This document shows, piece by piece, positions 2,020 to 40,483 of a DNA stretch of 64,000 nucleotides. The number at the start of each line of letters is the position of its first letter. Within the stretch, counting starts at the first letter, position 1. This stretch comes from a virus. Lineage: Duplodnaviria; Caudoviricetes. A model generated the notes under the pieces. That model was not told the DNA's origin, searched no databases, and worked only from the letters and a program-made list of their open reading frames with translations. Location: positions 72,916 through 136,915 of IMG/VR virus record IMGVR_UViG_3300021400_000128. One strand, written 5' to 3'. A program made the translations under genes and the position numbers.

Positions 2020-2072
2020 AAAATAAGAAAGTGCAATGAATACACTTTCTTAGAGTCTTTTGTTATTATACC
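2020..2072 (-). promoter_or_regulatory. CTAAGAA-leader element (-10 box, conserved motif, hairpin + U-tract)
   Basis: TATAAT-11nt-CTAAGAAAGTG...CACTTTCTTATTTTTT; one of nine copies. Confidence 0.7.
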
Positions 2073-2125
2073 AGTTTTTATTATTTGTCAATATTAGTAT
2101 TTGATTATTACTTTGTCAAACAGCT

Positions 2126-2344
2126 CTAAAAACCGCTTGTAGTCTTTTTTTTATTTTTTATGACATAACCAGGATTATGAAACAATTCAGGATTACTTAA
2201 AAGTTCATTCATTAGTTTGTCAAGCGTCTCATATGCTTCTTTCACATTTTCTGGTGCATCATTATTCAATTTTCCCGTCTCCTCATCATAATAAGGCTTA
2301 ATAATCTTTAACAATGCTTTTGCTGTTTTCATTTTATCTTCCAT
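2126..2344 (-). CDS. Small protein downstream of MGG metallopeptidase (possible immunity partner)
   Basis: Coupled to the upstream gene; function inferred from position only. Confidence 0.55.
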   Translation of the reverse strand: MEDKMKTAKALLKIIKPYYDEETGKLNNDAPENVKEAYETLDKLMNELLSNPELFHNPGYVIKNKKKTTSGF

Positions 2345-2346
2345 TT

Positions 2347-3249
2347 TTATCCTCCATATCCTAATCTGTCAATTTCATCTAATAATACCTTGACATATGC
2401 CTTTGAAACTTCACTGGCATTGTCTTTATTAGTATATATATCTGCAAATGCTTCCGCAAATGCTTCTTTTGTTGGGCTGCCGCCATATGACTTCGCATCA
2501 CTGGCATACCCCGAGATTTCATGTCGGAAAGATGGTAAGGCTTTTTTATATCCTATTGATTTTTTTGCTTCCTTTTCCAGACGTTGTAAAGTTTTACTTT
2601 TTCTGATATCATCCATCATATTATAAGTATCAAAAAAACCTTTTTTCTTTGCATCTTTCAACATTCTGCCTAATAAGTAATTATGTATCGCATGACCGAA
2701 TTCATGTGCAACCACAGATTCAGGTGTCATATTTGGGATATCAAATCCTCTTTCAGCTCCTGAAAACAATTTTGGATCATCTACCTTTGAAAAATGTACG
2801 CCTAACCCAAAGGTTTGACGTGTTTCACCAGTAGCCCCACTGAATGTAGATTTAATTTCTGCGGCAGTTGTACCACCAGGATCAACGATGTAATGGAATC
2901 CATTTATAGCCCCCTGCATAAAGGGATATCTTTCTTCAAGTTCAGAAATGGTATTCAACGCCCGTTTTATCATTTGTAAATCATGGTTCTCCGTAAAACC
3001 CTTTGCAACATTTGTTTCGCCATATTTTTCAATCAACACAGAACGCAGATCTTCTTTTGTCTGCGCATCATTTATTTTATCCCAAAAAGACTTTTCTTTT
3101 GGCTGCTTTGCGGTTAACCGTTTTTGCCGCTCCACTTCTTTCGCTGCCTGTCTCTGCTGTTCAAGTTCATCGATTTCACTTTGAGGAGCCCCGTTCTGCA
3201 ATGCTCTTGCTATCTTTTTTGCTAACCTGTAGCTTGCTGATCCACCCAT
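2347..3249 (-). CDS. MGG-leader protein with zincin metallopeptidase domain
   Basis: Starts MGGSASYRLAKKIA; HEFGH...ISGYA...EAFAEAF motif. Confidence 0.75.
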   Translation of the reverse strand: MGGSASYRLAKKIARALQNGAPQSEIDELEQQRQAAKEVERQKRLTAKQPKEKSFWDKINDAQTKEDLRSVLIEKYGETNVAKGFTENHDLQMIKRALNTISELEERYPFMQGAINGFHYIVDPGGTTAAEIKSTFSGATGETRQTFGLGVHFSKVDDPKLFSGAERGFDIPNMTPESVVAHEFGHAIHNYLLGRMLKDAKKKGFFDTYNMMDDIRKSKTLQRLEKEAKKSIGYKKALPSFRHEISGYASDAKSYGGSPTKEAFAEAFADIYTNKDNASEVSKAYVKVLLDEIDRLGYGG

Positions 3250-3368
3250 GTCAACCATCCTTTAAAGCAAAAGAAGACTGAACATTGATCGCTCAGTCTT
3301 CTTAGGAATCTCGCTGATTATAATTATATCATGAGCGGTGATATATTTTACAGTTTATCTCATCATCC

Positions 3369-3767
3369 TCATCCTAATTCCCAGACATCTTCATCTGAGT
3401 CTCGGTACTCGAACATATCATCCGTAGGTTGTGTTCTGAGCTCCGGATTTTCTTCGATCTGCTTTATCACACCCCAGGCAAGGTCATCCAGAACGTCTTC
3501 ATAGTCATACCATGCCCGTGACGTATCGAAAAGAGCATTAGCGATATAATTGACCGTCCTGTCACCCATCGCCATCAGATAGCGTGCAGCGGGATTGCAC
3601 GTTTCCTTTCCATATTCGATTCCGACACGATCACCATCGTTGTTATAACGATAGATGATCCTGGAAGTAGCACGAACCATCTCCCCGGCAACGCTTTCCG
3701 CTTTTCCCTCGAAAGGAACCAATTCATCAAACAGTTGATTTAATTGATCCTCGTAAATGCTCATCAT
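3369..3767 (-). CDS. Conserved phage hypothetical protein
   Basis: LVPFEGKAESVAGEMVRA..RIIYRYNNDGD, a recurrent phage motif. Confidence 0.7.
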   Translation of the reverse strand: MMSIYEDQLNQLFDELVPFEGKAESVAGEMVRATSRIIYRYNNDGDRVGIEYGKETCNPAARYLMAMGDRTVNYIANALFDTSRAWYDYEDVLDDLAWGVIKQIEENPELRTQPTDDMFEYRDSDEDVWELG

Positions 3768-4059
3768 TTTTGACCTTCCTTTACAATTTGCTGGCCTCGT
3801 TTTATTGCTTTGACACTCCCCATGCCTAAAGGCAGGGGATTCTTAAGAAGGTTGCTAAGATAGCCTTATTCTTAAAGGGCTTGCCAATAGCCCGCTATCC
3901 AGTCTTTCAAAATTGAAATTCTGTTTACATTTCCGTTACCGCCTTATATCCCCATAGTTGAAGCGAGGGGTTTTACGGCTGTTTTCTGATAAAATCACCG
4001 TACCAGTTTGTTTCGAATTGAAAATCAAAATTCTTCAGCATTTGCTGTCGAAGTGTCAT
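3764..4059 (-). pseudogene. 38-aa ORF interrupted by the mini-element
   Basis: Removing 3810-3988 restores MTLRQQMLKNFDFQFETNWYGDFIAIKRGQQIVKEGQK*. Confidence 0.65.
3810..3988 (-). mobile_element. Non-autonomous IS605-type mini-element with a third omegaRNA-like scaffold
   Basis: Same right-end hairpin; left end CCCCATAGTTGAAGCGAGGGG; TAM-like TTTAT at 3989-3993. Confidence 0.85.
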
Positions 4060-4239
4060 GTCATTCTCCTCTCAGCAAACCGCCATCATCTGCTGCCAAA
4101 TGCACATTTTTTCGTTATCATCATAATCGGCAGCGTCCAAATCGTCATATACTTCGATCATGGCGTACTATTTTTCTTCTAAAGTGCTGATGGTGGACAA
4201 CTTGTTAAGATAGTTGGCGAAAATTGTGTTTGCGTTCAT

Positions 4240-4376
4240 AGGTAACCTCCGTGATTCAAAATTTATTATTTAATCAACTTACATTTATTATTATATGCGT
4301 TATTATATATTTGTCAATGTCTTCTTTTATTTTTATTACAATTAATCGTAAAGAAAAAACCGGGATATCCGGTTGT
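4240..4376 (-). promoter_or_regulatory. Terminator + early promoter cassette
   Basis: AACCGGGATATCCGGTT hairpin with T-tract on minus, then TTGACA (4312-4317)-16-TATAAT. Confidence 0.85.
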
Positions 4377-4380
4377 AATA

Positions 4381-5280
4381 TTATTTTGAATTATCGTATG
4401 TTACTTTAAATCCCGCTGATTCGATTTGTTGAATTGTCGCCGCATGTGATGGATTATTTTTCCATGTCTTTGGTACAGAGAAATGATCTATATCATTGAG
4501 TGTTACATCACCGTGGAATTGTAATTCAGCGTATTGGTATCCATAGCTGCCGGTGTCATATAATTGTTTTGCTTGTTCGTAAAAATAACGAGCTTCACCT
4601 TCAGTAATTCTATCCGGTTCACCCCATTCTGCACTATATTTTGAAATGATACGGGGATTTGACACCCAACTCGGATATAAAACATCATACAACGAATCTC
4701 CAAGGGTCATTGTTGTACGGCTCACCATTGTATCTTTTTTGAAGACAATATCCAAATTACCGTAAGATGCAGCAGAAACAGAATCAGGACTTCCAAGATA
4801 GCCGTATTTTTCATAATCAGCGGGAGCTAAGACACCATCATATTCAAATGCTGTTCGCGAAAAATAATCTCTTGCGTCGAGATCTTCTGCACCCATTGAT
4901 GTACCCGTCTCGAACTGATTCATAATTCTTCCACTGGATAAAATCTTTGCAACTGTACTTTCTTTTATTCTTCGGCGAAATTCAAGTTTCTCAACTGCTT
5001 TGCGTAAATATTCTTCTCCACGATCGATTAGTTTCTGTGCGTCTACGGGCGAGTTATCCCGTAAGTTCTTTGACTTCTCAATATGCCCTGTGAAATTCTT
5101 TAATAATTTTGGTAATTCTGTATTTACAGGATTATTCTTTTCTCGTAAATATTGCTCATATGCTTCTTTTGCTTGCTGCCGTACATAATCTTCATCGAAT
5201 TCAAAAATTTCATTTTCGTATTCTTTTCTTTTCTTTTCGATAAATCTTTTAACAAATCTGAATTTTGCACTTCCACCCAT
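4381..5280 (-). CDS. MGG-leader protein with DUF3626-like putative ADP-ribosyltransferase domain
   Basis: MGGSAKFRF start; NQFETGTS.G, YGYL, YG, TMTLGDS and YAELQFHG motifs. Confidence 0.6.
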   Translation of the reverse strand: MGGSAKFRFVKRFIEKKRKEYENEIFEFDEDYVRQQAKEAYEQYLREKNNPVNTELPKLLKNFTGHIEKSKNLRDNSPVDAQKLIDRGEEYLRKAVEKLEFRRRIKESTVAKILSSGRIMNQFETGTSMGAEDLDARDYFSRTAFEYDGVLAPADYEKYGYLGSPDSVSAASYGNLDIVFKKDTMVSRTTMTLGDSLYDVLYPSWVSNPRIISKYSAEWGEPDRITEGEARYFYEQAKQLYDTGSYGYQYAELQFHGDVTLNDIDHFSVPKTWKNNPSHAATIQQIESAGFKVTYDNSK

Positions 5281-5359
5281 GTGTTACCACCTTAAATAAA
5301 AAAAGAAGACTAAACTTTTTTAGCTTAGCCTTCTTAGGGTCCTGTAGCTGATGATTTAC

Positions 5360-5677
5360 TTATTTTCTTATTCTCTGCTCGTAAATTTTCTCTTCACGAT
5401 CAATTAATTTTTTGATATGCGACTTTACTTTATCCGGTACTGGAACATTTTTGTCACGGAGATCCTCTAATCCTTCCGTTTCCCATCCATCATCATACAC
5501 TCTGGCAATGTTAAGGAATGAATCTAAAACTCCACTCTCACCATTTCCGTAATAAGTAGTATGTTTATGTAATTTATCTTTATAATCCGGGAATTGTACA
5601 AGGTAGAAGTCGGAATATTCTTCATCACCAACTTCTTTCTTTTCACGTCCAATTACTTTCATCTTGATTTCTGCCAT
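5360..5677 (-). CDS. Hypothetical protein
   Basis: ORF with GAGG RBS. Confidence 0.6.
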   Translation of the reverse strand: MAEIKMKVIGREKKEVGDEEYSDFYLVQFPDYKDKLHKHTTYYGNGESGVLDSFLNIARVYDDGWETEGLEDLRDKNVPVPDKVKSHIKKLIDREEKIYEQRIRK

Positions 5678-5696
5678 ATTTACCTCGCTGATTTAA

Positions 5697-15861: not shown

Positions 15862-16496
15862 GCAATAGGAATAAGCGTATAAGTGTCTTTTAGTGCTCTG
15901 ATACAGTTAACCATCGTCATTCCACTTGTACAAACATCATCAATAAAGATACAAACTGGTTTATTAGAGTGTCCGATTACCTGTATCACACCTCTGTCCT
16001 GTGTTACATCCGCGTATGTTGATCCTGATAAGTGTCTGTCTGCAAACATCTTGACGTATGGACAATTTAATTTCTCAGCAAGAACTTTCCCGACTTCGGA
16101 AATGAAATGTTTTTTTGTTTTGCTATGTCCTTGCGGAGCATTATAGACAAAGCAGTTATCGGTTTTATGAATCAATTGCCGGATCGTGAGTTCGAACTCA
16201 CTGGCAACCATATTCAGAGCTTCAGGTTCCTGTTCCGCTTTTACTCTCTTGAGCCATTTGACCTGTTCTTTTTCGCTGGTGTCCCAAGAGCGAATAGACA
16301 ACCAACGATAATCACCTTTTCTGTTAAATTTCGGAGCTAATGTTCCGATATTAACAGGCATGATTTTCAATTCATGGTCAACAGTATCAAATGCGCTGTA
16401 TGTACTGATTTTTTTCTTTGTACTTTCCGGAGATAACAAGCCATTATCAAATGAAAACACATCGAAGCTGAACCCAGCTCCTAAATCATTTCGCAT
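15834..16496 (-). CDS. Phosphoribosyltransferase-fold protein (ComF-like)
   Basis: IFIDDVCTSGMTM PRPP-binding loop. Confidence 0.7.
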   Translation of the reverse strand: MRNDLGAGFSFDVFSFDNGLLSPESTKKKISTYSAFDTVDHELKIMPVNIGTLAPKFNRKGDYRWLSIRSWDTSEKEQVKWLKRVKAEQEPEALNMVASEFELTIRQLIHKTDNCFVYNAPQGHSKTKKHFISEVGKVLAEKLNCPYVKMFADRHLSGSTYADVTQDRGVIQVIGHSNKPVCIFIDDVCTSGMTMVNCIRALKDTYTLIPIAWIYGKRKS

Positions 16497-17020
16497 TCGA
16501 TCCCCATGTTCGTTAACCGTTCGTAGGTTTCCCGCTGTTCATTTAGGCTCTTGCATTCAATCTGTACAATGAAGCGAGGATTACCTGATCCGGATGTTTC
16601 ATTATCATCCTCATCCTCTTCTTCATCGTCAGTATCATAATTCGGGAAAAACCCGAAGTCGGCGATGTCGAATTCCAACGGATCGAGAAGCATGAATTCT
16701 TGTTCCAGACGGTCATAATCCCAGGTGGACATTTCCGCTACTTTGTTATCTGCAAGACGAAAAGCGCGGATCTGGTCTTCTGAAAGGTCATCTGCCATGA
16801 TGCAAGGGACTTTTGCCATCTTTAACCGTCTGGCTGCCTTGTATCTGGTGTGCCCGCAGATGATCATGTTGTTCTTATCAATAATAATGGGTACTTTAAA
16901 ACCGAAATTCTGAATTGAATTTGCCACGTACTGGACTGCATCGGAGTTCTTTCGTGGGTTGTTTTCATACATTTGAAGGTCGTTGATGTCTTTATATACT
17001 ATCTGTAACTCATCTGCCAT
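16481..17020 (-). CDS. ParB-N/Srx domain protein
   Basis: NNPRKN...FGFKVPIIIDK..IICGHTRYKAA. Confidence 0.9.
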   Translation of the reverse strand: MADELQIVYKDINDLQMYENNPRKNSDAVQYVANSIQNFGFKVPIIIDKNNMIICGHTRYKAARRLKMAKVPCIMADDLSEDQIRAFRLADNKVAEMSTWDYDRLEQEFMLLDPLEFDIADFGFFPNYDTDDEEEDEDDNETSGSGNPRFIVQIECKSLNEQRETYERLTNMGIECEMI

Positions 17021-17265
17021 ATTCTCTCCTTACGTTTAAATAAAAAGTAGACACTTGTATGTACAAAGTGCCTTCTTAGGGTCTGATTATATTTTACCTT
17101 ATTTTATTATTCACATCGTTGTCATTTCATCCCATATATAGTGATATGGTATCCATCGTGTGGAAGTGTCGAATTCCGTCACAGGCTGAATCACGGGTAT
17201 CCGGTACTCACCTGTTCCAACGAACATCGCTTTTTCAAGATTTAATAATGGGAGCTGACTTTTCT

Positions 17266-17979
17266 TCATTTCTTCTTACCGAGCTTTTCCCGCTGTTTTC
17301 TTATCCGCTCATCATGTTTTTCCATATCTTCAACGTTGTATGTCTTTCCACCAAACAATTGATATCCTCGTTCTAACGGTATCACTTCATCCTTCAGCTC
17401 TTCTGGCACAATACCGTTAAACAATATCTGTGATGGGTTCAGTCGTTTCTTCATTTCTTCATAACCCATCCAGAAATTATCATAATAATCCTTCGTCTGC
17501 ATTGTCCCAACGGTTGACACACAGACCACCGAGTTTGTAGGTTCACCGTCGAAGCAGAATTGAAACGTCTGTGGCAATGCCCATGTGATCGTTGGGATAA
17601 TGTTCACCCCGTTCATTTGAAGATAGGCAGCTACCCAGTGTTTTCGGTAGTGATTCCACACCTGCATCGCCTTCGGCATATTGGTATATATCGAAAACTC
17701 AGGGGAACAGACATAGCGGTACTGTTTCAGACGATCAAGATACAGGTCAGGTGCACTCCAAAGACGTTCGAATTGATAATCATGAACGTGAAAATGGATA
17801 CCACGCTTAGATGGATCGTTCTTTTTGATATCACTTTGCATATAGTTGAATGGGATCCACTTTGTTGTTGTGTCGTATTCCTTCACTCTGCCTGCTATCA
17901 CAGGAATTCCATATTCACCGACACCATCAAACAGAGCTTTTTCCATATTTAGCAGTGGGACAATAAACTTTTTTGCCAT
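17266..17979 (-). CDS. DUF4417 protein
   Basis: GIHFHVHDYQFERLW..P..Y; SPEFS.Y..MP.A.Q.WNHYRKHW; IPTITW; CFDGEP. Confidence 0.85.
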   Translation of the reverse strand: MAKKFIVPLLNMEKALFDGVGEYGIPVIAGRVKEYDTTTKWIPFNYMQSDIKKNDPSKRGIHFHVHDYQFERLWSAPDLYLDRLKQYRYVCSPEFSIYTNMPKAMQVWNHYRKHWVAAYLQMNGVNIIPTITWALPQTFQFCFDGEPTNSVVCVSTVGTMQTKDYYDNFWMGYEEMKKRLNPSQILFNGIVPEELKDEVIPLERGYQLFGGKTYNVEDMEKHDERIRKQREKLGKKK

Positions 17980-17982
17980 GTG

Positions 17983-18549
17983 TCACCCCACGGAAGATTC
18001 ATAATCGTTCCTGACAGATGCGTCCCCCATCTCACATCTTGCCATTTTGTGAAATTCGTCTAATCCTTTGTCGCGGATACACTCCAGGAACTTGATAATC
18101 AGTGTATCAGTCTCCGGATGAAAATGTCTGCCTTTTCGCATTTTCTTATAGTGGATCATTGGTGATTCAGGTGTCCAGGCTTCTTTTTGATAGACCTTCC
18201 CGGCACCGATCCAGTCACAGATCATCTCTATGACATAGTGATATGGGATTTTGTTTGCAATCACACTTCCGTCTGCTTCAGTAAAATCTGTCCAAAATTC
18301 CCAATGATGAGGATTCGCTCCTTTGTGATGGAGCCATGCATAGCTGTAGCCGATGTCTTCCTTCTCTGCTTCAATCGGGCTTCGGTTCCCTTGAAAGTAT
18401 TTCGCCGAGGGTATGAACTCTGCAAAACTAAATTTTGAAAGATCATGTTTGATTCCCTGCCATGTGATACCACACGCTCTGCATTCCTTGAATACAACTT
18501 TTTTATGTCTGCAAACGGTTAGAAAATGTTTGATATAGGGATTGTTCAT
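17983..18549 (-). CDS. DUF5662 HD-like protein
   Basis: H...V..H; HDLSKFS; AWLHHKG.NPHHWE; EMICDW; start set to ATG 18549 after AGGAG. Confidence 0.8.
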   Translation of the reverse strand: MNNPYIKHFLTVCRHKKVVFKECRACGITWQGIKHDLSKFSFAEFIPSAKYFQGNRSPIEAEKEDIGYSYAWLHHKGANPHHWEFWTDFTEADGSVIANKIPYHYVIEMICDWIGAGKVYQKEAWTPESPMIHYKKMRKGRHFHPETDTLIIKFLECIRDKGLDEFHKMARCEMGDASVRNDYESSVG

Positions 18550-18628
18550 ATTACTCCTAATGTGTAAATAAGAAGGCACCTGTTAATTAAGGTGCCTTCT
18601 TAGGGTCTGTGTTTATTATAACAGAATA

Positions 18629-20923
18629 TTATTTAGCAAACTCCCGAATCTGGTTCAGCCCTATGTATTTCTTTCCACCACTAACCAAAACTGGAACGCT
18701 CTGGATATCGTATTTTTTGGCAAACTCAGTTGTAGCTTCATCCTTCACGACAATCTTTTGATAATCGATCCCAGCTTGCTTCAGTACATTCTCAGCCATG
18801 TTGCAATTTGGGCATGTCTCTGTTGAGAAAAGCATATTAACATCCTTCTTTTCCTTGTGAAAGTTAGGATCATATTCTTTTCGCTCTTTGAATTCCTGCA
18901 CCTTCCCATCATTCCAATTGCGCAGCGGACGATAATATCCCGTGATTCTGCTGTACACTTCGGTTTCTTTTCCACATTGTGGACATTGAGCAACTTCACC
19001 TGTCAAATATCCATGGTCAGGACAAATTGAATACGTCGGGGATAGTGTGTAATACGGGAGATGATAATTTTCCGCTATTTTCCTTACAAGCTGCGCCGCT
19101 GCTTTCCACCCGCTCAATCTCTCGCCGAGAAATACATGGAATACGGTTCCGGACGTGTAAAGCGTTTGCAGTTTATCCTGAATATCCAGTGCTTCGAACA
19201 CATCTTCAGTATAACCGACAGGAAGGTGAGATGAGTTTGTATAATAAGGTGTTCCGTCTGACGCTGTTATTATTTCCGGCCATCGTTCTTTATCATGCTT
19301 CGCAAGGCGATATGATGTTGATTCTGCTGGTGTCGCTTCAAGATTGAATAAATTTCCGTATTTTTCCTGATAATCTGAAAGACGTTCCCGCATATGATTT
19401 AGAACATTTTCTGCAAACTTCTGCGTTTCAGGATTTGTCAGATCTTTTTTCAACCACTTCGCATTCAGTCCCGCTTCATTCATACCAACCAAACCAATTG
19501 TAGAAAAATGATTGTTAAACGTTCCGAGATAGCGTTTTGCGTAAGGATAGAACCCTGCATCAAGATATTTTGTGAGGACTTTTCTCTTAATATCTAAAGA
19601 ACGGGCAGCAATATCCATCATTTTATCTAATCGCTTATAAAAGTCAGTTTCATCTTTCGCAAGAAAAGCGATGCGGGGAAGGTTGATGGTAACAACGCCG
19701 ATCGATCCAGTACTTTCTCCGGAGCCAAAGAATCCACCTGATTTTTTACGCAGTTCACGAAGATCAAGGCGCAACCGACAACACATCGACCTCACGTCTG
19801 TTGGTTCCATATCGCTGTTGATGTAATTAGAAAAATAAGGTGTTCCGTACTTGGCGGCCATTTCAAAAAGCAGACGATTGTTTTCAGACTCCGACCAATC
19901 AAAATCTTTCGTGATAGAGTACGTCGGAATTGGGTACTGTAATCCACGACCATTTGCATCACCTTCAATCATCACTTCGATGAATGCTTTGTTTACCATA
20001 TCAGCTTCTTTTTGGCAGTCGCCATATGTGAAATCCATCGGTTCCCCTCCGACCAAAGCAGGCTGGTCTTTCAGGTCAGTAGGAATTCTCCAGTCCAGCG
20101 TGATGTTAGTAAATGGAGCCTGTGAACCCCATCGGCTTGGCGTGTTTACCCCGAAGACAAAAGACTGAATGCAGTTTTTTACATCTTCATATTTCAGGTG
20201 ATCCGCTTTTACAAAAGGAGCTAAATATGTATCAAAAGAGGAAAATGCCTGTGCACCAGCCCATTCGTTTTGCATTATTCCAATAAAATTCACCATCTGA
20301 TTACATAGAGAGGATAGATGCCTCGCCGGAGCAGATGTGATTTTACCAGGAACACCGCCAAGTCCTTCCTGGATCAACTGTTTCAGCGACCATCCGGCAC
20401 AGTATGGAGCTAACATGGCAAGGTCGTGAATGTGAATATCAGCATTTCGGTGTGCATCACCGATTTCCTGATCGTAAATTTCACTCAGCCAGTAATTTGC
20501 CGTAATAGCTCCACTGTTGGAAAGAATCAGTCCGCCAATAGAATAAGTTATGGTCGAATTTTCTTTAACTCTCCAATCAGAACTATCAACATAACTGTTG
20601 ACCAATTCTTTGTAGTCAAGGAAAGTGCTTTTTAGATTTCGGATATTTTCTCGCTGTTTGCGATAAAGGATATAGGATTTCGCAACATCTGAATATCCGG
20701 CTTGACTAAGAATTGTTTCCACACTATCCTGAATATCTTCAACGTTAATCGTATTATTCTTCACCTTTGATTGGAAATCTGCCGTAACCTGTATTGCAAG
20801 CATTTCTAAAACATCTGGAAATACAGTTTTTTCTTCCGCAAGAAAGGCTTTTTCCATAGCGTGAATAACTTTTTGAATATCGAACTTAGCATGACTGCCA
20901 TTTCTCTTTATCACATCACACAT
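18629..20923 (-). CDS. nrdD: Anaerobic (class III) ribonucleoside-triphosphate reductase with ATP cone and C-terminal glutaredoxin-like domain
   Basis: VIKRNG ATP cone; IHIHDL; SMCCRL; YSRITGYYRP glycyl-radical motif; CPNC...IQSVP. Confidence 0.95.
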   Translation of the reverse strand: MCDVIKRNGSHAKFDIQKVIHAMEKAFLAEEKTVFPDVLEMLAIQVTADFQSKVKNNTINVEDIQDSVETILSQAGYSDVAKSYILYRKQRENIRNLKSTFLDYKELVNSYVDSSDWRVKENSTITYSIGGLILSNSGAITANYWLSEIYDQEIGDAHRNADIHIHDLAMLAPYCAGWSLKQLIQEGLGGVPGKITSAPARHLSSLCNQMVNFIGIMQNEWAGAQAFSSFDTYLAPFVKADHLKYEDVKNCIQSFVFGVNTPSRWGSQAPFTNITLDWRIPTDLKDQPALVGGEPMDFTYGDCQKEADMVNKAFIEVMIEGDANGRGLQYPIPTYSITKDFDWSESENNRLLFEMAAKYGTPYFSNYINSDMEPTDVRSMCCRLRLDLRELRKKSGGFFGSGESTGSIGVVTINLPRIAFLAKDETDFYKRLDKMMDIAARSLDIKRKVLTKYLDAGFYPYAKRYLGTFNNHFSTIGLVGMNEAGLNAKWLKKDLTNPETQKFAENVLNHMRERLSDYQEKYGNLFNLEATPAESTSYRLAKHDKERWPEIITASDGTPYYTNSSHLPVGYTEDVFEALDIQDKLQTLYTSGTVFHVFLGERLSGWKAAAQLVRKIAENYHLPYYTLSPTYSICPDHGYLTGEVAQCPQCGKETEVYSRITGYYRPLRNWNDGKVQEFKERKEYDPNFHKEKKDVNMLFSTETCPNCNMAENVLKQAGIDYQKIVVKDEATTEFAKKYDIQSVPVLVSGGKKYIGLNQIREFAK

Positions 20924-20939
20924 TTCTCTCTCCTCTTAT

Positions 20940-21614
20940 TTAACGCACCATTGTTTTTACATATTTATTTCCAATGGAACGATATTCTTTCATTTCCTCT
21001 GATGTCGGTGAATGCAGACCGCGTTGAAACACCTCCGTTGTATCCATGAAAGGCTGTAAATACCAGATAGTGGATCCTTGTAAATACCTTCCGGTTTCTT
21101 CGATATCCCTTTGGGAATGAAATTCTCTGACAACGGTCGTGCGAAATTCATAAGGAACACCACTACTACGGATAATTTCTATCGATTGCTGAATAAGATC
21201 GGTTTTCAGATTTTGGATTCCGGATGTTTTAGCGTATTTTTCAAAAGAGTTTTTTACATCCATTGCAATGTAATCAATGATATTTTGTGTTAGTATCTTT
21301 TGTAAAGTTTCAGGATTGCTTCCGTTCGTATCAAGTTTGATGGAATATCCAATCTGCTTGATTTCCTGCAAAAAAGGAATAATATCTTGATGTATTAAAG
21401 GTTCTCCACCTGTTACACATACACCATCTATTATTCCTTTGCGCTTTTGCAGATATTGAAAAACAGTTTCCGGATCAATTGATTCATCACCATTCACAAT
21501 CCCACTGTTATAACAAAATGGGCAGTGAAAATTACAACCTGTCGTAAATATTACGCAGGCTGTTTTATCCGGATAATTTAGCAAACTGAGCTTTTGGAAT
21601 CCGCCAATCTTCAT
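20940..21614 (-). CDS. nrdG: Anaerobic RNR activating radical-SAM enzyme
   Basis: CNFHCPFC, TGGEP, KLDTNGS, YEFRTT. Confidence 0.92.
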   Translation of the reverse strand: MKIGGFQKLSLLNYPDKTACVIFTTGCNFHCPFCYNSGIVNGDESIDPETVFQYLQKRKGIIDGVCVTGGEPLIHQDIIPFLQEIKQIGYSIKLDTNGSNPETLQKILTQNIIDYIAMDVKNSFEKYAKTSGIQNLKTDLIQQSIEIIRSSGVPYEFRTTVVREFHSQRDIEETGRYLQGSTIWYLQPFMDTTEVFQRGLHSPTSEEMKEYRSIGNKYVKTMVR

Positions 21615-21800
21615 TCTTTCGTCCTATAGCAAAAATAAAAGAAAGCACAATTCAATTACGAAATGTGCCTTCTTAGGGTCTGAGGTAATTATAACTGATT
21701 TTCTTTATGTGTTTTTTTTATTTTAATTGGCGATATCCTTGATGGAATATACTTATCATCTGTTTACTGAATTATCGCCGGATATATGAGCTTCGACATA

Positions 21801-22124
21801 TTACCTTTCCTGGTACTTCGGACATTTCTCATTATCGAAATATACCCCAGTGGGTTTTGTTTCATACTTTTCACATGATCCGGCAGTGTAGTCTGTTGTC
21901 TTACGACCGCTGAACATCTTTCCTGCAAATTTACACGTTCTGCAAGCCATGTTCTTTTGCTTTTCACGCTGACGCTCTGCTGATGCCGCCATAGCTTCAT
22001 CTTCTGAATAATAACGGAGCCATACGCTTTTCCTGCTGTCTGAAAGACTGTTAAATTCCTTCTTTTCTTCATCTGAAAGGTCATTCCAGATTTCATCCAA
22101 ATATTTTTTCTCACTATCTGTCAT
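21801..22124 (-). CDS. Small Cys-rich protein downstream of ART gene (possible immunity partner)
   Basis: CRTC...C..YE.KP..V.F....CPKY. Confidence 0.6.
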   Translation of the reverse strand: MTDSEKKYLDEIWNDLSDEEKKEFNSLSDSRKSVWLRYYSEDEAMAASAERQREKQKNMACRTCKFAGKMFSGRKTTDYTAGSCEKYETKPTGVYFDNEKCPKYQER

Positions 22125-22136
22125 TTTTCACCTTCT

Positions 22137-23033
22137 TTAAATTTTACTCCAATCAATTTCAGGGCGTTCAATAGTTTTTGCATCTTGTCCAACTATAGTA
22201 AACACGACTTGTGGAGTTCCATATCTACCACCAGTTCTGTTGATCGCAATCGGTTTCAGTTTATAACCTCTCTGTAAGATGATTTCAAATTCAGTTCCAT
22301 AATCAGATTGTTTTGAAACACCATCCCATCCTAAACCGCTTCCCATCCCATGAATACTAAAAGGTTCTGCGTAAATACCTTTTGATCCTTTCGGTACAAA
22401 AATCTTCATTTCCACGCCACTAAATCCACTTTCAGAAGTCGCACCTGTTGACATAAAGTTATTAACATCTATGATTTTACCTTGATCGATGGCTTCCTGA
22501 ACACCATCCAACATTGCTGGTATAGGCTGAGCAAGCATTAAACCAAACATTCTGTTCATATGTCGTGTTGATACTCCGCGCCGCACCCAGATATCTTCTG
22601 GAATCTCGGTTTTATCCAAAGCAGCTGTCAGCTGATTCACACGTTCCATTGTTCCATCGTAAAGGTATTCTGTAGGATCCAGTCTTCCACCTAATAATTT
22701 ATTCATTGAATCATAAGCACCACCGGTAAATTCATAAGCAGCATCTCTTTCATCATCTGTAAAGCTATTCCATGCTTTACCGGAGCTTTCCCGGAATTTA
22801 TCATCAACTTCTTGTTTGTCTTTAGTCCATATCGCATTATCTAATCGTTTTTGATCGTATGATTCACGGTATGGGCTTTGATTTTCTGAATTCTGCTGTC
22901 TTCTTTTTTCTCGTTCCGCTTCTTTTGCTGCTTGTCTCTTGCGTTCAAGATCATCAATTTCAGTCTGCGGAGCTCCATTCAGCCTTGCATTGGCTATTTT
23001 CTTTGCTAATCGATAACTTGCTGATCCACCCAT
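22137..23033 (-). CDS. MGG-leader protein with VIP2/Alt-like ADP-ribosyltransferase domain
   Basis: MGGSASYRLAKKIA start; R (VRRG), S-T (FMSTG) and E-x-E (TEFEIILQRG) catalytic motifs. Confidence 0.85.
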   Translation of the reverse strand: MGGSASYRLAKKIANARLNGAPQTEIDDLERKRQAAKEAEREKRRQQNSENQSPYRESYDQKRLDNAIWTKDKQEVDDKFRESSGKAWNSFTDDERDAAYEFTGGAYDSMNKLLGGRLDPTEYLYDGTMERVNQLTAALDKTEIPEDIWVRRGVSTRHMNRMFGLMLAQPIPAMLDGVQEAIDQGKIIDVNNFMSTGATSESGFSGVEMKIFVPKGSKGIYAEPFSIHGMGSGLGWDGVSKQSDYGTEFEIILQRGYKLKPIAINRTGGRYGTPQVVFTIVGQDAKTIERPEIDWSKI

Positions 23034-23118
23034 AGAAAAGACACCTCCTAATCAAGATGCCCTTTCTTAGAGCGCACATCTTTTTATTTGTTTACTATTA
23101 TTTTAACTCCGTACAATT

Positions 23119-23553
23119 TTATTTAGTTGTTTTTTTATATCCGGGCCATTCAGGAAGGTTTCCTAATTTCCTAATAAATCGTTCAGTTTTTTCATTCTGA
23201 ACTTTTAGATTATTTTCAATATCTTCATATTCTTTTTCATTGTAGCTAATACCATTATCACGAAGCAATTGAACAAATTCATTTACAGTCATGTTGTTTT
23301 CCTCTCGAACAGCTTTAATCTGTTCACCTGTCAGTAATCCGTGAAACAAGCGATTAGCAACAGTATATTTTCTATCTAAATCGCTACTGTCCACATTATA
23401 TCCGTCACCACATTCAGGACATTTCCAATAAATAACGGTTCCTGTTATAACATCGTTACCGATATAACCTTCTTGAATTTCAGAAACAAGTGTATGCATT
23501 GTGTATTCTTGACAATCTGAACAAAACATTTTTTTCTGTTCACCAATATTCAT
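23119..23553 (-). CDS. MqsA-like antitoxin (zinc ribbon + HTH)
   Basis: FCSDC...KCPECG...GLLTGEQIKAVRE. Confidence 0.7.
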   Translation of the reverse strand: MNIGEQKKMFCSDCQEYTMHTLVSEIQEGYIGNDVITGTVIYWKCPECGDGYNVDSSDLDRKYTVANRLFHGLLTGEQIKAVREENNMTVNEFVQLLRDNGISYNEKEYEDIENNLKVQNEKTERFIRKLGNLPEWPGYKKTTK

Positions 23554-23557
23554 CGTC

Positions 23558-24316
23558 TTATCCTCTCTGTTCATCTGTAGCACTGTTTCTCATCGGTGCT
23601 GTCCTGTGGAGACCGACTAAAACAGCATATGGCTTTCCATCGTTACTATGAAAAGGGTGCACTTTCACATAAGTCCTGATACTTTCACCGCTGTTATTTG
23701 TAACGAACGTCTCAAACTCCCATAAATAATCATTTTCTGGTATTCCATCTATTATAGGTGTCTGTCTTGCATCTAACACTCTCCTTAAATTTTCTGGAGT
23801 GAGTTGTGGCATTACCTGTTCTAATATTGCTTTATAATCTGGCATATCATTGTATTGTAAATAATTACGATTTTTTACTTTACCATCAAAAAACAAGAAT
23901 CCACCCTTTTCTGTTTCTATGTCTCCTGTAATTAGTCTGTTAACCGCATTGGTTTCAGGTGAGCCATTTCTATCTTCTGGAGACACTTTATCGTCATCAT
24001 TTAAATTATCAATTGCTAACATTCTTTGTAAGAATCCGACGACTTCCCTTCCGGTCTGTGGCAATGGAGTCATCGCTGCCCTGCCTGTAGCCGTCGGATT
24101 CTCGAATTTGTCTAATACACGGTTTTCCAGTGTCCGTAATATGTTTGTTCGCTGTTCTGCTATCGGCTCTGCCATATTTGCAAGAGCCATATGATCTTCA
24201 ATCGTTATATTGATATTATGAAAGCGATGATTGACAGGCTTCCCGTCTTTTCTGAAATAAATTCCGTTTCTTCTGTAATATCGTACCGCACCTGAATTGT
24301 CTCTGCCACCGCCCAT
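23558..24316 (-). CDS. MGG-leader protein with MqsR/RelE-like C-terminal domain
   Basis: MGGGRD start; KNRNYL...LTPEN...LWEF...TYVK...LVGLH; directly upstream of an MqsA-like gene. Confidence 0.55.
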   Translation of the reverse strand: MGGGRDNSGAVRYYRRNGIYFRKDGKPVNHRFHNINITIEDHMALANMAEPIAEQRTNILRTLENRVLDKFENPTATGRAAMTPLPQTGREVVGFLQRMLAIDNLNDDDKVSPEDRNGSPETNAVNRLITGDIETEKGGFLFFDGKVKNRNYLQYNDMPDYKAILEQVMPQLTPENLRRVLDARQTPIIDGIPENDYLWEFETFVTNNSGESIRTYVKVHPFHSNDGKPYAVLVGLHRTAPMRNSATDEQRG

Positions 24317-24386
24317 AGGGATGCCCTCCTTTTTCGATTAGGACACCCCTTCTTAGGGCGCATGTCACTCGATTTAATTATACAAC

Positions 24387-24502
24387 TTGACACTCCCCAT
24401 GCCTAAAGGCAGGGGATTCTTGCTTCACCCACCACAGCATGATTTTCATCACGTCTTACACGATGTCCACAAGCGTTGATTCCCGTGTGTCCCACGGTAT
24501 TT
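24387..24502 (-). ncRNA. TnpB omegaRNA (reRNA) scaffold overlapping the tnpB 3' end
   Basis: ACCGTGGGACACACGGG hairpin ... GTGAAGCAAGAATCCCC ... GTGTCAA. Confidence 0.8.
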
Positions 24503-25599
24503 TCTTTTAAAATTTCCAATCCTTTATTCAGAATGTTGATCGCTGCATTAGCATCACGATTATGATGAGTTCCACATTTTGGACAGTCCCATTCTCGGAT
24601 CGATAAATCCTTTACTTCAGGATTTTTATATCCGCATTGGTTACATGTCTGACTGCTTTCATAGAAGCGTGGTATTTTAACTAATATTCCTTTCCTGTCA
24701 CTCATCTTGTATTGCAGCATTCTGAAAAATTCACTCCAACTTACATCTGCGATTGATCGTGCTAATTTATGATTTTTCATCATTCCTTTGATGTTCAGAT
24801 CTTCAACACATACAACTTGATTCTCGTTTGCAAGTGTTGTTGTCACTTTATGAAGGAAATCTGTTCTGATATTAGTCACTTTTTCGTAAGCAATCGCAAC
24901 TTTTATTCTCTGCTTTTCTCTGTTGTTGCTCCCCTTTACTTTTTTTGACATTCTTCTTTGTGTTCTTGCAAGTTTTTTTGCGTATTTTTTATATGTTTTC
25001 GGATTCGGGATACTATTTTCATTACTGTCAACAAGAAAATCTTTGATCCCAACATCTATTCCAATAATGCCTCCGTTATTTGTCAATTCAGGTTCATCTG
25101 TCTCAACACAAAGCGAAACATAATACTTTCCACTCATCGATTTACTTATTGTTGCATTCAGGATTCGTCCATCGAAGTGTTTCAGTCCTTTATATCTGAC
25201 ATAACCGATTTTAGGTAGCTTGATTGTATTTGCGACAAGCCTAATTCCGTTACTCTGATTTCTTGTTCTGAAAGATTGTTTTCTTTTCTTTGAATGGAAC
25301 TTTGGGAATCCGGCATTCCTTTTGAAGAAATTTTGATAAGCCTTATCTAAATCCTTCAAAGTCTCTTGATATGCCATGCTGTCGGTCAGGTTTAGCCATT
25401 CTTGAGTTCCGTCTTTTTTTAGCTCCGTCAACAACCGCATCGTTTCATACATTGACACTGATTTCTTTTCTTCTTTGTATGACTTAATCCGAAGATCAAG
25501 AAAATGATTATATACATAGCGAACATTTCCAAATGTCTGCTCAATTTGGCTCTTTTGTTCTCTCGTTGGATATAATCTCGCCTTGTATCCTTTGTTCAT
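24403..25599 (-). CDS. tnpB: RNA-guided endonuclease TnpB
   Basis: YKARLYP HTH; RuvC GIDVG / VEDL / RDANAA; CNQC...CPKC. Confidence 0.95.
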   Translation of the reverse strand: MNKGYKARLYPTREQKSQIEQTFGNVRYVYNHFLDLRIKSYKEEKKSVSMYETMRLLTELKKDGTQEWLNLTDSMAYQETLKDLDKAYQNFFKRNAGFPKFHSKKRKQSFRTRNQSNGIRLVANTIKLPKIGYVRYKGLKHFDGRILNATISKSMSGKYYVSLCVETDEPELTNNGGIIGIDVGIKDFLVDSNENSIPNPKTYKKYAKKLARTQRRMSKKVKGSNNREKQRIKVAIAYEKVTNIRTDFLHKVTTTLANENQVVCVEDLNIKGMMKNHKLARSIADVSWSEFFRMLQYKMSDRKGILVKIPRFYESSQTCNQCGYKNPEVKDLSIREWDCPKCGTHHNRDANAAINILNKGLEILKENTVGHTGINACGHRVRRDENHAVVGEARIPCL

Positions 25600-25724
25600 A
25601 CAACACTCACTCGAATAATATTAATATTACCGTCTTTCATCCCCATAGCTAAAGCAAGGGGCTTTTCGGCGATTTTTGGTAATCGCCCAACTGTCCGCTC
25701 AGTTCCATTTGAAAACGTGTCATT

Positions 25725-36268: not shown

Positions 36269-36437
36269 AAGTGACCTCCGTGATTCAAAATGTTTGTTGT
36301 TTGTTTTCTTAACTATAATTATTTTATCACATGTACGGATACTTGCAATATGATAACATTCAAATTATGACATGACAAATACCATGTTTCCGTACTTGTA
36401 TTAATCATGTATAATTTTCTAAAAGGAATTAAGTGAT

Positions 36438-37336: not shown

Positions 37337-37403
37337 ATTTTGCGTCAGAACGTTCAAATTTGAAGGGTTTTCCATCAGTATGTAAGTTTGTTCGCCCAGA
37401 TAA

Positions 37404-37438
37404 GAAAAAGCCCACAGTTTAACGCTGTGGGCTTAATT
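37404..37438. terminator. Bidirectional intrinsic terminator
   Basis: AAGCCCACAG..CTGTGGGCTT between convergent genes. Confidence 0.8.
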
Positions 37439-37454
37439 TTGATATTCTCGTGAA

Positions 37455-38612: not shown

Positions 38613-38750
38613 GATTGCCTCCGTGATTCAAACTCAATTTCAACTTACATTTATTATTATATGCGTTATTTAATAATTGTCAATGTGTATCATTATTTTT
38701 ATTACATTTAATAATAATTAAAAAAGCCCGGTAAAAAAGTCGGGCTTTTC
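38613..38750 (-). promoter_or_regulatory. Terminator + early promoter cassette
   Basis: AAAAGCCCG..CGGGCTTTT hairpin; TTGACA at 38678-38683. Confidence 0.8.
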
Positions 38751-38769
38751 ACGTAAGGAGACTGATCTA

Positions 38770-39525
38770 TCAATCTGTTATTTTTCTGAGAATTTCTGTA
38801 CCAAAGCTGTCATATTCGGCAATGAGCAGATAATCGTCAGCAAATTTATGGTAAGGTAATCCGTTATATCGCACGATATCAGCGGATACAACGATCTTAG
38901 CTCCATAACTTAGCTGTCCGCAAATTCGCATTGTGTCCGCATCTCGGATGTTCGCCGCATCACAGACAACCATACACACTCCACCATCAATTTTCTGTTC
39001 GTAAGATACCGGATTTGTATAGATTTGTTGAGATGGCACAAACACCGGGTTCATGGGCGGCTGCTGCATCACTGGCATTTGCTGAGTGTCAGGTATGTAG
39101 TCGATCACGGATTGCATGACGGTTTTCGGATCAAAGACCGTGCTGATTTTTCCTGCGTCCCGTCTTGCTTCAAAATGCAGATGTGGGCCGCTCGAGTTTC
39201 CTGTGCTTCCGGAATATGCAATCAAGTCACCTTTTTTAACTGGTTGTCCTTTGATACAATTGACCTTGCTTAAATGAGCATACACCGTACCAGAGCCGTC
39301 TCCGTGCAGCAGGACAACGTAATTACCATATCCGCCGGGTTCATATCCAACAGTTTGCACCCAACCATCCGCAGCCGCAAGAATGGACGTTTCCATCGGG
39401 CATCCGTAATCAATTCCTTTGTGAGGATTGGATTTTGTGTAATACGGTTCCCAAATTGCGCCATAATCTAACGTAATGGGATATTCACCGCTGAAAGGCT
39501 GTCTCAGTTGAATCATATGCGCCAC
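38770..39525 (-). CDS. M23 peptidase endolysin
   Basis: HKGID, GYGNYV, YAHL, GNSSGPHLHFE. Confidence 0.9.
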   Translation of the reverse strand: MAHMIQLRQPFSGEYPITLDYGAIWEPYYTKSNPHKGIDYGCPMETSILAAADGWVQTVGYEPGGYGNYVVLLHGDGSGTVYAHLSKVNCIKGQPVKKGDLIAYSGSTGNSSGPHLHFEARRDAGKISTVFDPKTVMQSVIDYIPDTQQMPVMQQPPMNPVFVPSQQIYTNPVSYEQKIDGGVCMVVCDAANIRDADTMRICGQLSYGAKIVVSADIVRYNGLPYHKFADDYLLIAEYDSFGTEILRKITD

Positions 39526-39527
39526 CT

Positions 39528-39908
39528 TTAACTATCGATCTTTAAATTCCACTTACTGGCTTTGTTCAAAAGGTTTTCATTTGACAGTTTTCGGAATTCA
39601 TCCAGGTTCTTATTTGCAGTTTCAAGACCGCCGTTATGAGTGCCATTCATCACGCAATACACAAGTTCATGATCCAGTTCTGACATAACCTGCATACCCC
39701 GAAGGAGGATGTAGTTATCGTATTCCCGTTCCTTCCGACCTTCTAAATTCTCTCTCCGGATTTCTTCCTGTTGAATTCTGAAAGCCTGTTTCATTTGGTC
39801 ATTAACGTTATTTGAAAACATTTTGAAAAGCCAGATAACCACAACGATCGCTATCGCACCAATAGCGACCAAAACAGATGCGGGTACGACCTCAATGATC
39901 TTGTTCAT
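39528..39908 (-). CDS. Single-TM lysis-cassette protein (holin-like)
   Basis: N-terminal hydrophobic helix; located between holin and endolysin. Confidence 0.6.
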   Translation of the reverse strand: MNKIIEVVPASVLVAIGAIAIVVVIWLFKMFSNNVNDQMKQAFRIQQEEIRRENLEGRKEREYDNYILLRGMQVMSELDHELVYCVMNGTHNGGLETANKNLDEFRKLSNENLLNKASKWNLKIDS

Positions 39909-40384
39909 GATTTTGCTTTTCCTTTTACTGCTTTTTTCACAGGCTCCTGGATAACAATTGGCTCCTCGATAACCGGAACTTCTTCCGTTTTATCATCATC
40001 GCCATTATCATTATTGAGCATTTCGATCTGATATTCATACGGATTTCCGTAATCGTTCATATCCTTTACAGCAGCTTCGATGTAAGCAACAATGATTTCG
40101 ATATCGAGCTTAATTCCCTTGGCTGCAAGATACTTTTCCACGACATTGATAGCGTAATTGAGTTTTTCGTGTCCGTGTTCGCCTCCGTACACCTGTTCAG
40201 CAGCAGTTACTGCTTCGCGACAGACAACCTTCAGGATTTCATACAGCTCCGGATTCTTATCCTTGAGCTTTTTGAAGATCTCAATTGCTTTACCGATTGC
40301 CCAGCTTGCCAGTGCAGCAGCAAGAATAGGAAGAGCCGCTTCTAATACCGCTTGTAAAACTTTACTTAAGAGTTCCATATTCAC
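39905..40384 (-). CDS. Phage holin, LL-H-like
   Basis: TM helix followed by AVTAAEQ...G.EKL.YA...IEAAV. Confidence 0.8.
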   Translation of the reverse strand: MNMELLSKVLQAVLEAALPILAAALASWAIGKAIEIFKKLKDKNPELYEILKVVCREAVTAAEQVYGGEHGHEKLNYAINVVEKYLAAKGIKLDIEIIVAYIEAAVKDMNDYGNPYEYQIEMLNNDNGDDDKTEEVPVIEEPIVIQEPVKKAVKGKAKS

Positions 40385-40483
40385 CTCCGCTTAAAATAAA
40401 AAAGCGCATCTTTTGTAGACACGCTTTCTTAGAGACTTTATCTAATTTTTATTATAACAGTTGTTTTCTATGTAAATAATTTT

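Follow-up and report, generated by a model that had tools for sequence, protein, structure and literature searches.

Why should a temperate phage place what looks like a strong intrinsic terminator directly behind a promoter, and repeat this arrangement in front of many genes with the same short sequence at the foot of each hairpin? The question is raised by a 64,000-nucleotide (nt) stretch of viral DNA (the window), which covers bases 72,916-136,915 of the 136,915-bp virus record IMGVR_UViG_3300021400_000128, that is, the right half of a phage genome with direct terminal repeats and 40% G+C in which the minus strand carries nearly all genes. Genes for an integrase, an S24 repressor and an antirepressor mark the phage as temperate; its tail genes are of the siphovirus type and its large terminase is of the Firmicutes type. 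No cultured relative was found, as megablast of 10 kb against a phage collection gave no match and the large terminase is less than 55% identical to any record. The element in question is a leader built around the motif CTAAGAARG and, as argued below, it probably acts as a factor-dependent gate on termination.

Within the window the motif (CYTTCTTAG on the plus strand, CTAAGAARG on the minus strand) has eight exact matches, all in a single orientation and on the gene strand, compared to a mean of 0.79 and a maximum of 4 in shuffled versions of the window, none of 100 shuffles reaching eight, and a ninth site, at 3305, reads CTAAGAAGA. All nine sites are located 22-62 nt upstream of a minus-strand start codon. 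An earlier note on this DNA had described nine copies in front of late-type genes and had proposed a genome-wide search; the recurrence that it noticed is real, and the search raised the number to 17, on the gene strand throughout and between genome positions 46,575 and 113,347, of which 14 (seven of them in the window) carry a terminator-type hairpin (class A) and three belong to a second type (class B). The genes behind the window copies encode a holin (PF09682), four proteins that start with MGG, one of which is an ADP-ribosyltransferase, a radical-SAM NrdG-like protein followed by NrdD, a DUF5662 protein followed by a DUF4417 protein, and a ParB_N protein. The identities of the holin, ADP-ribosyltransferase, NrdG, DUF5662 and ParB_N proteins hold in family searches, and the presence of nrdG/nrdD, ParB and DUF5662/DUF4417 among the gated genes makes the term late-type too narrow. 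The label 'terS' for the gene at 1579-2001 is unconfirmed, with no match in Pfam, PHROGs or NCBIfam.

The class-A leaders display a fixed order of parts, namely a -10 element (a perfect or TG-extended TATAAT, with no usable -35), a spacer, the box AGACC-CTAAGAAGGC, a hairpin, a T tract usually ending in a conserved TTTAAG, and a ribosome site, the conserved box being longer than first described. At every copy, as the earlier note had stated, the motif starts the 5' arm of a hairpin of variable sequence, the lower 8 bp of the class-A hairpin being AAGAAGGC/GCCTTCTT and the upper stem and loop being free to vary. In two genomes and additional fragments the class-A stems measure 11-15 bp, with folding free energies (dG) of -10 to -22 and mostly at least five T residues in the next 8 nt. 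If an intrinsic terminator is defined as a stable hairpin followed by a U-rich tract, class A is predicted from its sequence to qualify and class B, which has no U tract, is not; a generic terminator scan ranks 3303, 5335 and 2052 among its top sites. The division of the nine window hairpins into seven that resemble terminators and two that sequester the Shine-Dalgarno (SD) sequence was reproduced by folding, the former showing dG values of -10 to -20 kcal/mol together with T-rich tails and the latter, at 23070 and 24356, burying both SD and AUG. The end of the -10 hexamer is 11 nt from CTAAG in 7 of the 17 copies both of this phage and of the relative introduced below, and 14-26 nt from it in the others, so that the whole hairpin would be transcribed, the class-A stem starting 12-27 nt past the hexamer. 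The exact 11-nt distance reported earlier for five window copies is found at 2053, 3305, 18603 and 21676, and at 17079 when TAAAAT is taken as the hexamer (TATAAT is placed there at 6 nt). Judging from this modal spacing, transcription would be expected to start at the A of AGACC, which would make the box the 5' end of the RNA.

Class B, represented by the window copies 23070 and 24356 and by one copy 254 nt left of the window, retains the core CTAAGAARGG behind a different flank (GAYATGCGCY). No T tract follows its hairpin, the SD is contained in the loop and 3' arm, and an outer helix, GCGCY:GGGYG, covers the start codon, with a minimum free energy (MFE) of -21 to -29 kcal/mol. The nascent class-B RNA may also form a small alternative hairpin, GAYRT:AYRTC, that places the box in its loop and shows compensating changes in four copies, with modest energies and in a small sample. 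A scan with a class-B pattern returned chance matches only.

Evidence that the class-A hairpin exists as RNA comes from 40 copies in two genomes and five fragments, in which 94.2% of the cells pair, compared to 41-65% when the partner column is slid, and in which double-sided changes occupy 67 cells versus 24.6 in shuffles (0 of 500). Free co-variation is seen in the upper stem, with up to six pair types at each of four upper pairs. In the foot of the stem, non-consensus letters number 8 of 320 on the 5' side, an invariance that is partly a matter of ascertainment because the copies were gathered by their motif, and 32 on the 3' side, where they are mostly C-to-U changes that keep G:U pairs. 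Such one-sided tolerance of G:U indicates that the structure is formed by RNA transcribed from the gene strand and that the sequence of the 5' strand is under an additional constraint.

A scan that was blind to the motif identified 32 intergenic terminator-like hairpins on the gene strand, of which 14 contain the box and 18 do not, and it also picked up the class-B hairpin at genome position 95956. The sequence TAnAAT is present 8-25 nt before the stem in 13 of the 14 box terminators, compared to 1 of the 18 ordinary terminators within 50 nt; the box is found on every promoter-proximal terminator and on no ordinary one, and no degenerate intermediates were seen. At genome positions 60383 and 55200 an ordinary terminator (60510 and 55267, respectively) is located between the upstream stop codon and the leader promoter, and upstream of 46575 there are an opposite-strand gene and a separate hairpin that is absent from the terminator-scan list. 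Since ordinary terminators already stand upstream, the box hairpin appears to act on the transcript of its own promoter rather than to end the upstream operon. Ordinary terminators are also present at the ends of box-headed operons, suggesting that the action is local and not processive.

A scan with a gapped pattern led to a 148,121-bp contig (C7 of genome G001; JAFRIR010000042.1; loci L341-L348) that had been binned in a 'Flexilinea' metagenome-assembled genome from goat jejunum. This contig is a phage related to the present one, with 65-80% identity in matching DNA segments and 88 proteins in common, and the whole-genome comparison rests on these two complete genomes. The rest of the 4-Mb bin has only five motif hits, and the host cannot be deduced reliably from the binning. 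When the copies were used to build a covariance model, it found 14 class-A elements in this genome, 17 in C7 and nothing else in either. The C7 box is identical and the stems of orthologous leaders differ by compensating changes, and an identical box on different stems in so diverged a phage points to purifying selection. More copies are carried by other contigs, namely L310 (seven), L285 (three), L145, L150, L151, L154, L205 and others. A box with a single-base change, CCCTGAGAAGG, occurs in C7 (66219 region) and at L310:9607-9661 in leaders whose promoter, hairpin and T tract are normal, and could be either a tolerated change or a leader with an altered response.

The order of genes around the leaders differs between this phage and C7. 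At genome position 72661 and C7 position 60302, a class-B leader and its upstream gene (83% identity) are syntenic and the MGG cargo behind them differs; furthermore, the same type of cargo, such as the ADP-ribosyltransferase, is preceded by a class-B leader in one of the phages and by a class-A leader in the other. About ten MGG-start proteins are encoded by this phage and 12 by C7, and the leader together with their shared MGGSxxYR N-terminus looks, from its sequence, like a junction for the swapping of cargo. Apparent relatives collected through DUF5662 (L126-L144) share that gene alone and do not have the box, a scan of viral contigs with the bare 14-mer returned mostly single chance matches, and bacterial matches to the gapped pattern are ordinary terminators. 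A Gracilibacter sp. contig (L167:2982-3036) also has a box-like terminator, ACCCCTAAGAAGGCTC..., within the long leader that precedes an operon of aromatic amino-acid genes (DAHP synthase, prephenate dehydrogenase and EPSP synthase); in all likelihood this terminator belongs to an unrelated riboregulator and agrees with the pattern by chance.

Only three purposes would account for a promoter whose transcript meets a strong terminator at once, namely regulated termination, a constant level of leakage, or production of the short RNA for its own sake. An invariant box on one side of the stem calls for a sequence-specific reader. The leaders are thus best read, with reasonable though incomplete confidence, as a termination gate that depends on a factor and would control most non-early operons of this temperate, siphovirus-like 137-kb phage. 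In class A, a host promoter of the sigma-A type (perfect or extended -10, no -35) would fire, at the commonest spacing from the A of AGACC, and the first ~15 nt of the RNA would be the invariant box AGACCCUAAGAAGGC, of which the last 8 nt would form the 5' foot of the hairpin, followed by the U tract. By default the transcript would end after ~45 nt and the operon would stay silent, for example in a lysogen; a trans-acting factor on the box would keep the 5' foot single-stranded before the 3' arm emerges, so that the terminator would fail and the operon would be transcribed. In class B the same factor would free SD and AUG and thereby switch translation on.

How such a factor would read the box is a more tentative matter. 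A version at the RNA level, in which the factor recognizes the box in the nascent RNA and blocks the terminator or the SD hairpin, is preferred here at slightly less than an even chance. It is favoured because the box extends into the 5' foot of the stem, because class B keeps the core while having a translational output and no terminator, because the same type of cargo can stand behind either class in the two phages, and because ordinary terminators close the box operons, which speaks against processive modification. The most far-reaching form of this proposal, in which one factor that reads CUAAGAARG has two outputs (termination at 14 leaders and translation initiation at three), times the whole lytic programme through ~17 dispersed switches and represents an undescribed family, is a speculative one, with perhaps a minor chance of being right in full. 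The regulon-wide switch suggested by the earlier note is therefore a proposal that has on its side the promoter before the terminator, the invariant box with co-varying stems, its exclusivity and its presence in a relative. Among the options which that note listed, an antiterminator site for a protein remains the best reading, and an antisense small RNA (sRNA) of the phage is unlikely, neither phage having a complementary RNA gene.

Several points weigh against a factor that acts on the nascent RNA. The start of transcription, termination and its efficiency, read-through, the existence of the factor and the preference for RNA over DNA are all inferred, and the factor may instead read DNA. A canonical -10 is missing within 30 nt at two leaders (5337 and 23070), and the motif-blind scan softens but does not remove the ascertainment bias mentioned above. 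Only four class-B examples are known, and when the box is forced to be single-stranded in the class-B RNA a 7-bp upper stem still covers part of the SD, which makes the translational effect uncertain. Three metatranscriptome runs from the same sample contain next to none of the words of window 16400-25700, and no RNA run is listed for the stretch. Six-frame family searches of the phage genome gave no match to the Q families PF06530, PF03589 and PF06323 (E<=1, whole genome), to CAT_RBD (PF03123), to ANTAR (PF03861), to the cold-shock domain (CSD), to NusG-NTD (PF02357) or to ArpU TIGR01637 (TIGR01636 was not searched), and apart from the opposite strand of the elements no antisense partner was found in either phage.

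With regard to candidate factors, the earlier note had suggested a minus-strand gene at 60518..61114, which encodes a 198-amino-acid (aa) protein with a helix-hairpin-helix part like the alpha-CTD (C-terminal domain of the alpha subunit of RNA polymerase, RNAP) and a sigma-region-4-like part. The protein has a weak match to Sigma70_r4 (E 0.003, below the cut-off), and against PDB profiles it matches RNAP alpha-CTD at aa 27-73 (E 0.003-0.03), an archaeal regulator at aa 99-158 (E 9e-4) and, more weakly, sigma region 4 at aa 116-147 (E 0.4-0.7). Its AlphaFold2 model (pLDDT 87) gives weak fold matches to alpha-CTD and sigma region 4, and its look-alikes in ESM comparisons carry RNA_pol_A_CTD and Sigma70_r4. 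It belongs to a small family with eight representatives worldwide and no relatives among viral contigs, and a protein of 40% identity is encoded in C7 beside the same neighbour gene. These matches make it a plausible transcription factor and no more than a candidate reader of the box. The neighbour (59895-60365; 156 aa) is 58% identical in C7, adjoins the 198-aa gene in both phages and shows in its alignment a C-terminal ribbon-helix-helix-like motif, LSPKARLNLKRKAREQNKSISEIVR; together the two proteins may act as a regulatory pair. This conserved early pair is one possibility for the box-reading factor, a host factor being equally possible. A 117-aa gene at 40484-40837, directly upstream of the first box, has no homologue in C7 and is unlikely to be the regulator, and NCBIfam gave no name to ten unexplained proteins, six of them possible regulators; other conserved early proteins without an assigned function are encoded at 57604-57987 and 55161-55391.

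Given these candidates, it might be argued that the box is instead read as double-stranded DNA by a Q-like processive antiterminator, a phage protein (maybe the 198-aa protein) that loads on the early elongation complex. The order of promoter, conserved site and terminator is that of the lambdoid PR'-qut-tR' region, the box, at about +1 to +15, occupies the region in which RNAP, its nascent RNA still short, is engaged by Q-type factors (PMC4914094), variation of the box-promoter distance from 11 to 26 nt could be tolerated by a self-contained loading site, and the conserved early protein combines an alpha-CTD-like domain with a helix-turn-helix like that of sigma region 4, which binds the beta flap tip and is replaced there by Q (PMC4914094). 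Nevertheless, we regard this explanation as unlikely and disfavour the Q-like sigma pause of the earlier note: the three Pfam Q families have no match, the box has no -10-like pause hexamer (TAAGAA agrees with TATAAT at 3 of 6 positions and does not have the conserved last T), class-B leaders keep the core although they have no terminator, processive modification would ignore the ordinary terminators that close the box operons, and identity in the 198-aa protein is only 40% even though the two phages share one and the same box. On the other hand, there may be no switch at all, in which case a constitutive cassette of promoter and terminator would insulate, would attenuate its own promoter by a fixed fraction and would give read-through mRNAs a structured 5' end, the box being kept for promoter escape, for RNA stability or, as proposed for the PeSL modules of T4-like phages, as a homology patch for shuffling. 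PeSLs are repeated cassettes of a promoter and a stem-loop with proven promoter and terminator activity that have been implicated in gene shuffling (PMC2839356, PMC4122927), and the exchange of MGG cargo behind conserved leaders next to a syntenic gene of 83% identity, as well as the different gene order around the leaders, is in line with such a role. However, the PeSL stem-loop is situated over the -10 or in the interval from -35 to -10, and the transcripts of its own promoter thus escape it (PMC2839356), whereas here the hairpin lies wholly past the start. Moreover, a stabilizer or insulator needs no invariant 15-nt sequence, homology for recombination does not predict invariance of the 5' arm only, the leaders at genome 60383 and 55200 already have upstream terminators (with a separate, unlisted hairpin before 46575), and a strong hairpin with a U tract right after a promoter would waste most transcripts; a cassette without a switch is therefore judged improbable as well.

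Two further explanations are given still less credence. A late promoter inside the 5' arm, at which a modified RNAP would start as in T4, would let late RNAs escape both termination and burial of the SD and would leave upstream transcripts stopped or untranslatable; T4 uses this start-inside-hairpin logic for some late genes, and late promoters made of a single short element reportedly exist (T4 gp55). Such a promoter would explain why the conserved sequence is always the 5' foot and why classes A and B are interchangeable, and yet it is very unlikely, as it leaves without a role the near-perfect TATAAT that is kept 6-26 nt upstream in 13 of the 14 class-A copies, the box is not A/T-rich like known -10-type elements, and no sigma-2-like or gp55-like protein was recognized in the phage, only the sigma-4-like helix-turn-helix. 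For the perfect TATAAT left without explanation upstream of the hairpins, the T4-style option of the earlier note is disfavoured. It is even harder to believe that the terminated RNAs are the product, that is, a family of ~45-nt sRNAs that share the 5' seed AGACCCUAAGAAGG, end in a terminator hairpin and would serve as decoys or as regulators of host targets. A conserved single-stranded 5' end and a terminator are the usual build of a seed-type sRNA, many copies would give a high dosage and a HEARO RNA is present in the same phage; against this, every copy is followed directly by a ribosome site and a gene, the stem engages half of the 'seed' in pairing, class B cannot release a short RNA and no target is known. 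Two other ideas were discarded, namely a leader peptide, for which the hairpins hold no consistent start codon, and an SD mimic or STAB-SD as the principal function, since GAAGG can make only ~5 pairs, including a wobble, with the 3' end of the 16S rRNA, and the invariant form is not the best SD.

Regarding known systems, the proposed gate is closest in logic to the lambdoid PR'-qut-tR' regions under Q (lambda, 82, 21), in which a constitutive promoter of host type, a close terminator and a conserved site at the start of the transcription unit yield a short RNA until a phage factor acts, and which gate lysis and virion genes of a temperate phage. Unlike a lambdoid genome, which has one such copy, this phage has 14 + 3; it has neither a Q-family protein nor a -10-like pause element in the box, its conserved sequence is part of the terminator stem and has a translational variant, and its downstream terminators suggest non-processive action. 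The attenuation systems of Firmicutes (BglG/SacY/LicT at the ribonucleic antiterminator, RAT; ANTAR, HutP, PyrR and TRAP) are similar in that the site of an RNA-binding factor overlaps the 5' arm of a terminator and one factor serves several operons; they differ in that no CAT_RBD or ANTAR protein is encoded by the phage, in that the box is linear and 5'-terminal rather than a RAT or a dual-hexaloop hairpin, and in that a phage-wide regulon, not a metabolic operon, is concerned. In contrast to N/nut, there is no conserved boxB-type loop for an arginine-rich peptide, the loops and upper stems of 40 copies varying freely and only the 5' box and the stem foot being conserved; in contrast to RfaH/LoaP regulons, the phage genome has no NusG-NTD paralogue; and in contrast to RinA/ArpU, which act on a single late promoter before terS (PMC3152322), many promoters are gated. 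PeSLs (PMC2839356, PMC4122927) resemble these leaders as many modules of promoter, stem-loop and SD before genes with shuffling of accessory genes. They differ, however, as the PeSL stem-loop, within or over the promoter, stops only transcription from upstream and the present one is inside the transcript of its own promoter, as PeSLs have a full -35/-10 and these leaders only a -10, and as PeSLs mark early ORFans whereas the modules described here head lysis, packaging, head, tail and nucleotide-metabolism operons. The start-associated sequences (SAS) and extended SAS (ESAS) of cluster K mycobacteriophages are likewise a short invariant motif before many genes, with inverted repeats of variable spacing and with function and factor unknown; SAS overlaps the ribosome site, is not in a terminator and is unrelated in sequence and host phylum, and we know of no description of an adjacent -10 promoter. 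What is new here is the many-copy terminator, fused to a box and proximal to a promoter, with a translational sibling, its logic being known from lambdoid Q and Firmicutes attenuators.

What is known of late timing comes, for temperate phages of Gram-positive hosts, chiefly from single late promoters under RinA/ArpU-type activators and, for lambdoid phages, from one Q-controlled terminator. If the gate is real, ~17 dispersed promoters of this large gut phage would be silenced by one reusable leader instead of by many operators, with the same box also wired to a translational hairpin. Identification of the factor would then define a new antiterminator or RNA-binding family with a linear site of 9-15 nt, would offer a compact and portable on-switch to be used in Firmicutes, and would account for the silence of toxic cargo (such as the holin and effectors of the ADP-ribosyltransferase type) in lysogens.

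The class-A leaders of the window are all on the minus strand. The leader of the holin/lysis cassette (40387..40456; ATG 40378) has its -10 hexamer, TGTTATAAT, at 40456-40451, 18 nt before CTAAG, followed by the box AGTCT-CTAAGAAAG (40437-40424), a hairpin (40431-40397, dG -16.2) and a T tract with TTTTAAG (40396-40387); its ortholog in C7, at 92233, has the same variant box and a different stem. In the nrdG-nrdD leader (21629..21693; ATG 21614), TATAAT (21693-21688) stands 11 nt before CTAAG, and the box AGACC-CTAAGAAGG (21681-21668) is followed by a hairpin (21674-21639, dG -17.2) and a T tract. The same spacing of 11 nt is found in the DUF5662-DUF4417 leader (18560..18620; ATG 18549), with an TGTTATAAT hexamer at 18620-18615, the box at 18608-18595, a hairpin at 18602-18569 (dG -20.2) and, as its tail, TTTAC..., the weakest T tract of the set. 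The leader of the ParB-like cluster (17035..17096; ATG 17020) offers either TAAAAT (17096-17091, 11 nt) or TATAAT (17091-17086, 6 nt) as the -10, and its box (17084-17071) leads into a hairpin with one mismatch (17077-17045, dG -9.9) and a T tract with TTTAAA. Of the two class-A leaders before MGG genes, the one at 5293..5342 (gene 4381-5280, ATG 5280) carries the box GGACC-CTAAGAAGG (5342-5329), a 14-bp hairpin (5335-5303) and a T tract with TTTAAG, and no canonical -10 within 30 nt, and the one at 3261..3328 (gene 2347-3249/3258, MGG ATG 3249) has tandem TATAAT, the copy at 3322-3317 being 11 nt before CTAAG, a box GATTC-CTAAGAAGA (3310-3297) in which a G-to-A change is offset by C-to-T in the 3' arm, a hairpin (3303-3271, dG -17.7) and a T tract with TTTAAA. 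The leader of the putative small terminase gene (2016..2070; gene 1579-2001, ATG 2001) is composed of the -10 hexamer TGGTATAAT (2070-2065, 11 nt), the box AGACT-CTAAGAAAG (2058-2045), a 12-bp hairpin (2052-2024) and a T8 tract.

In the minimum-energy fold of 9-10 of the 14 class-A copies, CCCU of the box pairs with AGG of the downstream SD across the terminator, for example at 21681-21620, 18608-18550 and 3310-3250 of the window. This helix has only 3-5 bp and may arise by chance; if real, it would mean that read-through mRNAs are also translationally damped.

The two class-B leaders of the window are likewise on the minus strand. The one at 24305..24382 precedes the gene of an MGG protein (23558-24316) and has TATAAT at 24382-24377, the flank GACATGCGCC and the core CTAAGAAGG at 24361-24348, and a hairpin at 24350-24317 with the SD in loop and 3' arm and without a T tract, while in its outer helix CGCCC (24360-24356) pairs with GGGCG within the start region (MFE -28.9). 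The other, at 23027..23085, precedes the gene of the MGG ADP-ribosyltransferase (22137-23033; ATG 23033) and consists of the flank GATGTGCGCT and the core CTAAGAAAG (23075-23062), a hairpin of 13-14 bp (23067-23034) in which AGAAAGGGCATC pairs with the SD region, and an outer helix GCGCU:GGGUG over the start, with no T tract and no canonical -10 within 30 nt.

The phage also possesses a second class of leader, represented by eight cassettes that end in GAATCACGGAGG and are interspersed in the same regions, even among virion genes. The first base of GAATCACGGAGG is at window positions 38629, 36286, 35949, 4257 and 1494 on the minus strand, and also at genome positions 63172, 61012 and 53422. 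Six of the eight copies share a conserved AT-rich block, a full TTGACA-N17-TATAAT promoter, GTAAGTTGA and, before small genes, a leader ending in TTTGAATCACGGAGG, and the copies at 36286 and 35949 comprise the leader only. This interspersion indicates that there are at least two promoter classes and that the box leader is specific to its class rather than a generic intergenic module. In Rfam 15 no family matches the box elements (window at the gathering threshold; 16900-24500 at E<=5), and the sole match in the window at the gathering threshold is a full-length HEARO RNA (RF02033; 29925-30159, minus strand, 130.7 bits), the guide RNA of IscB-type nucleases.

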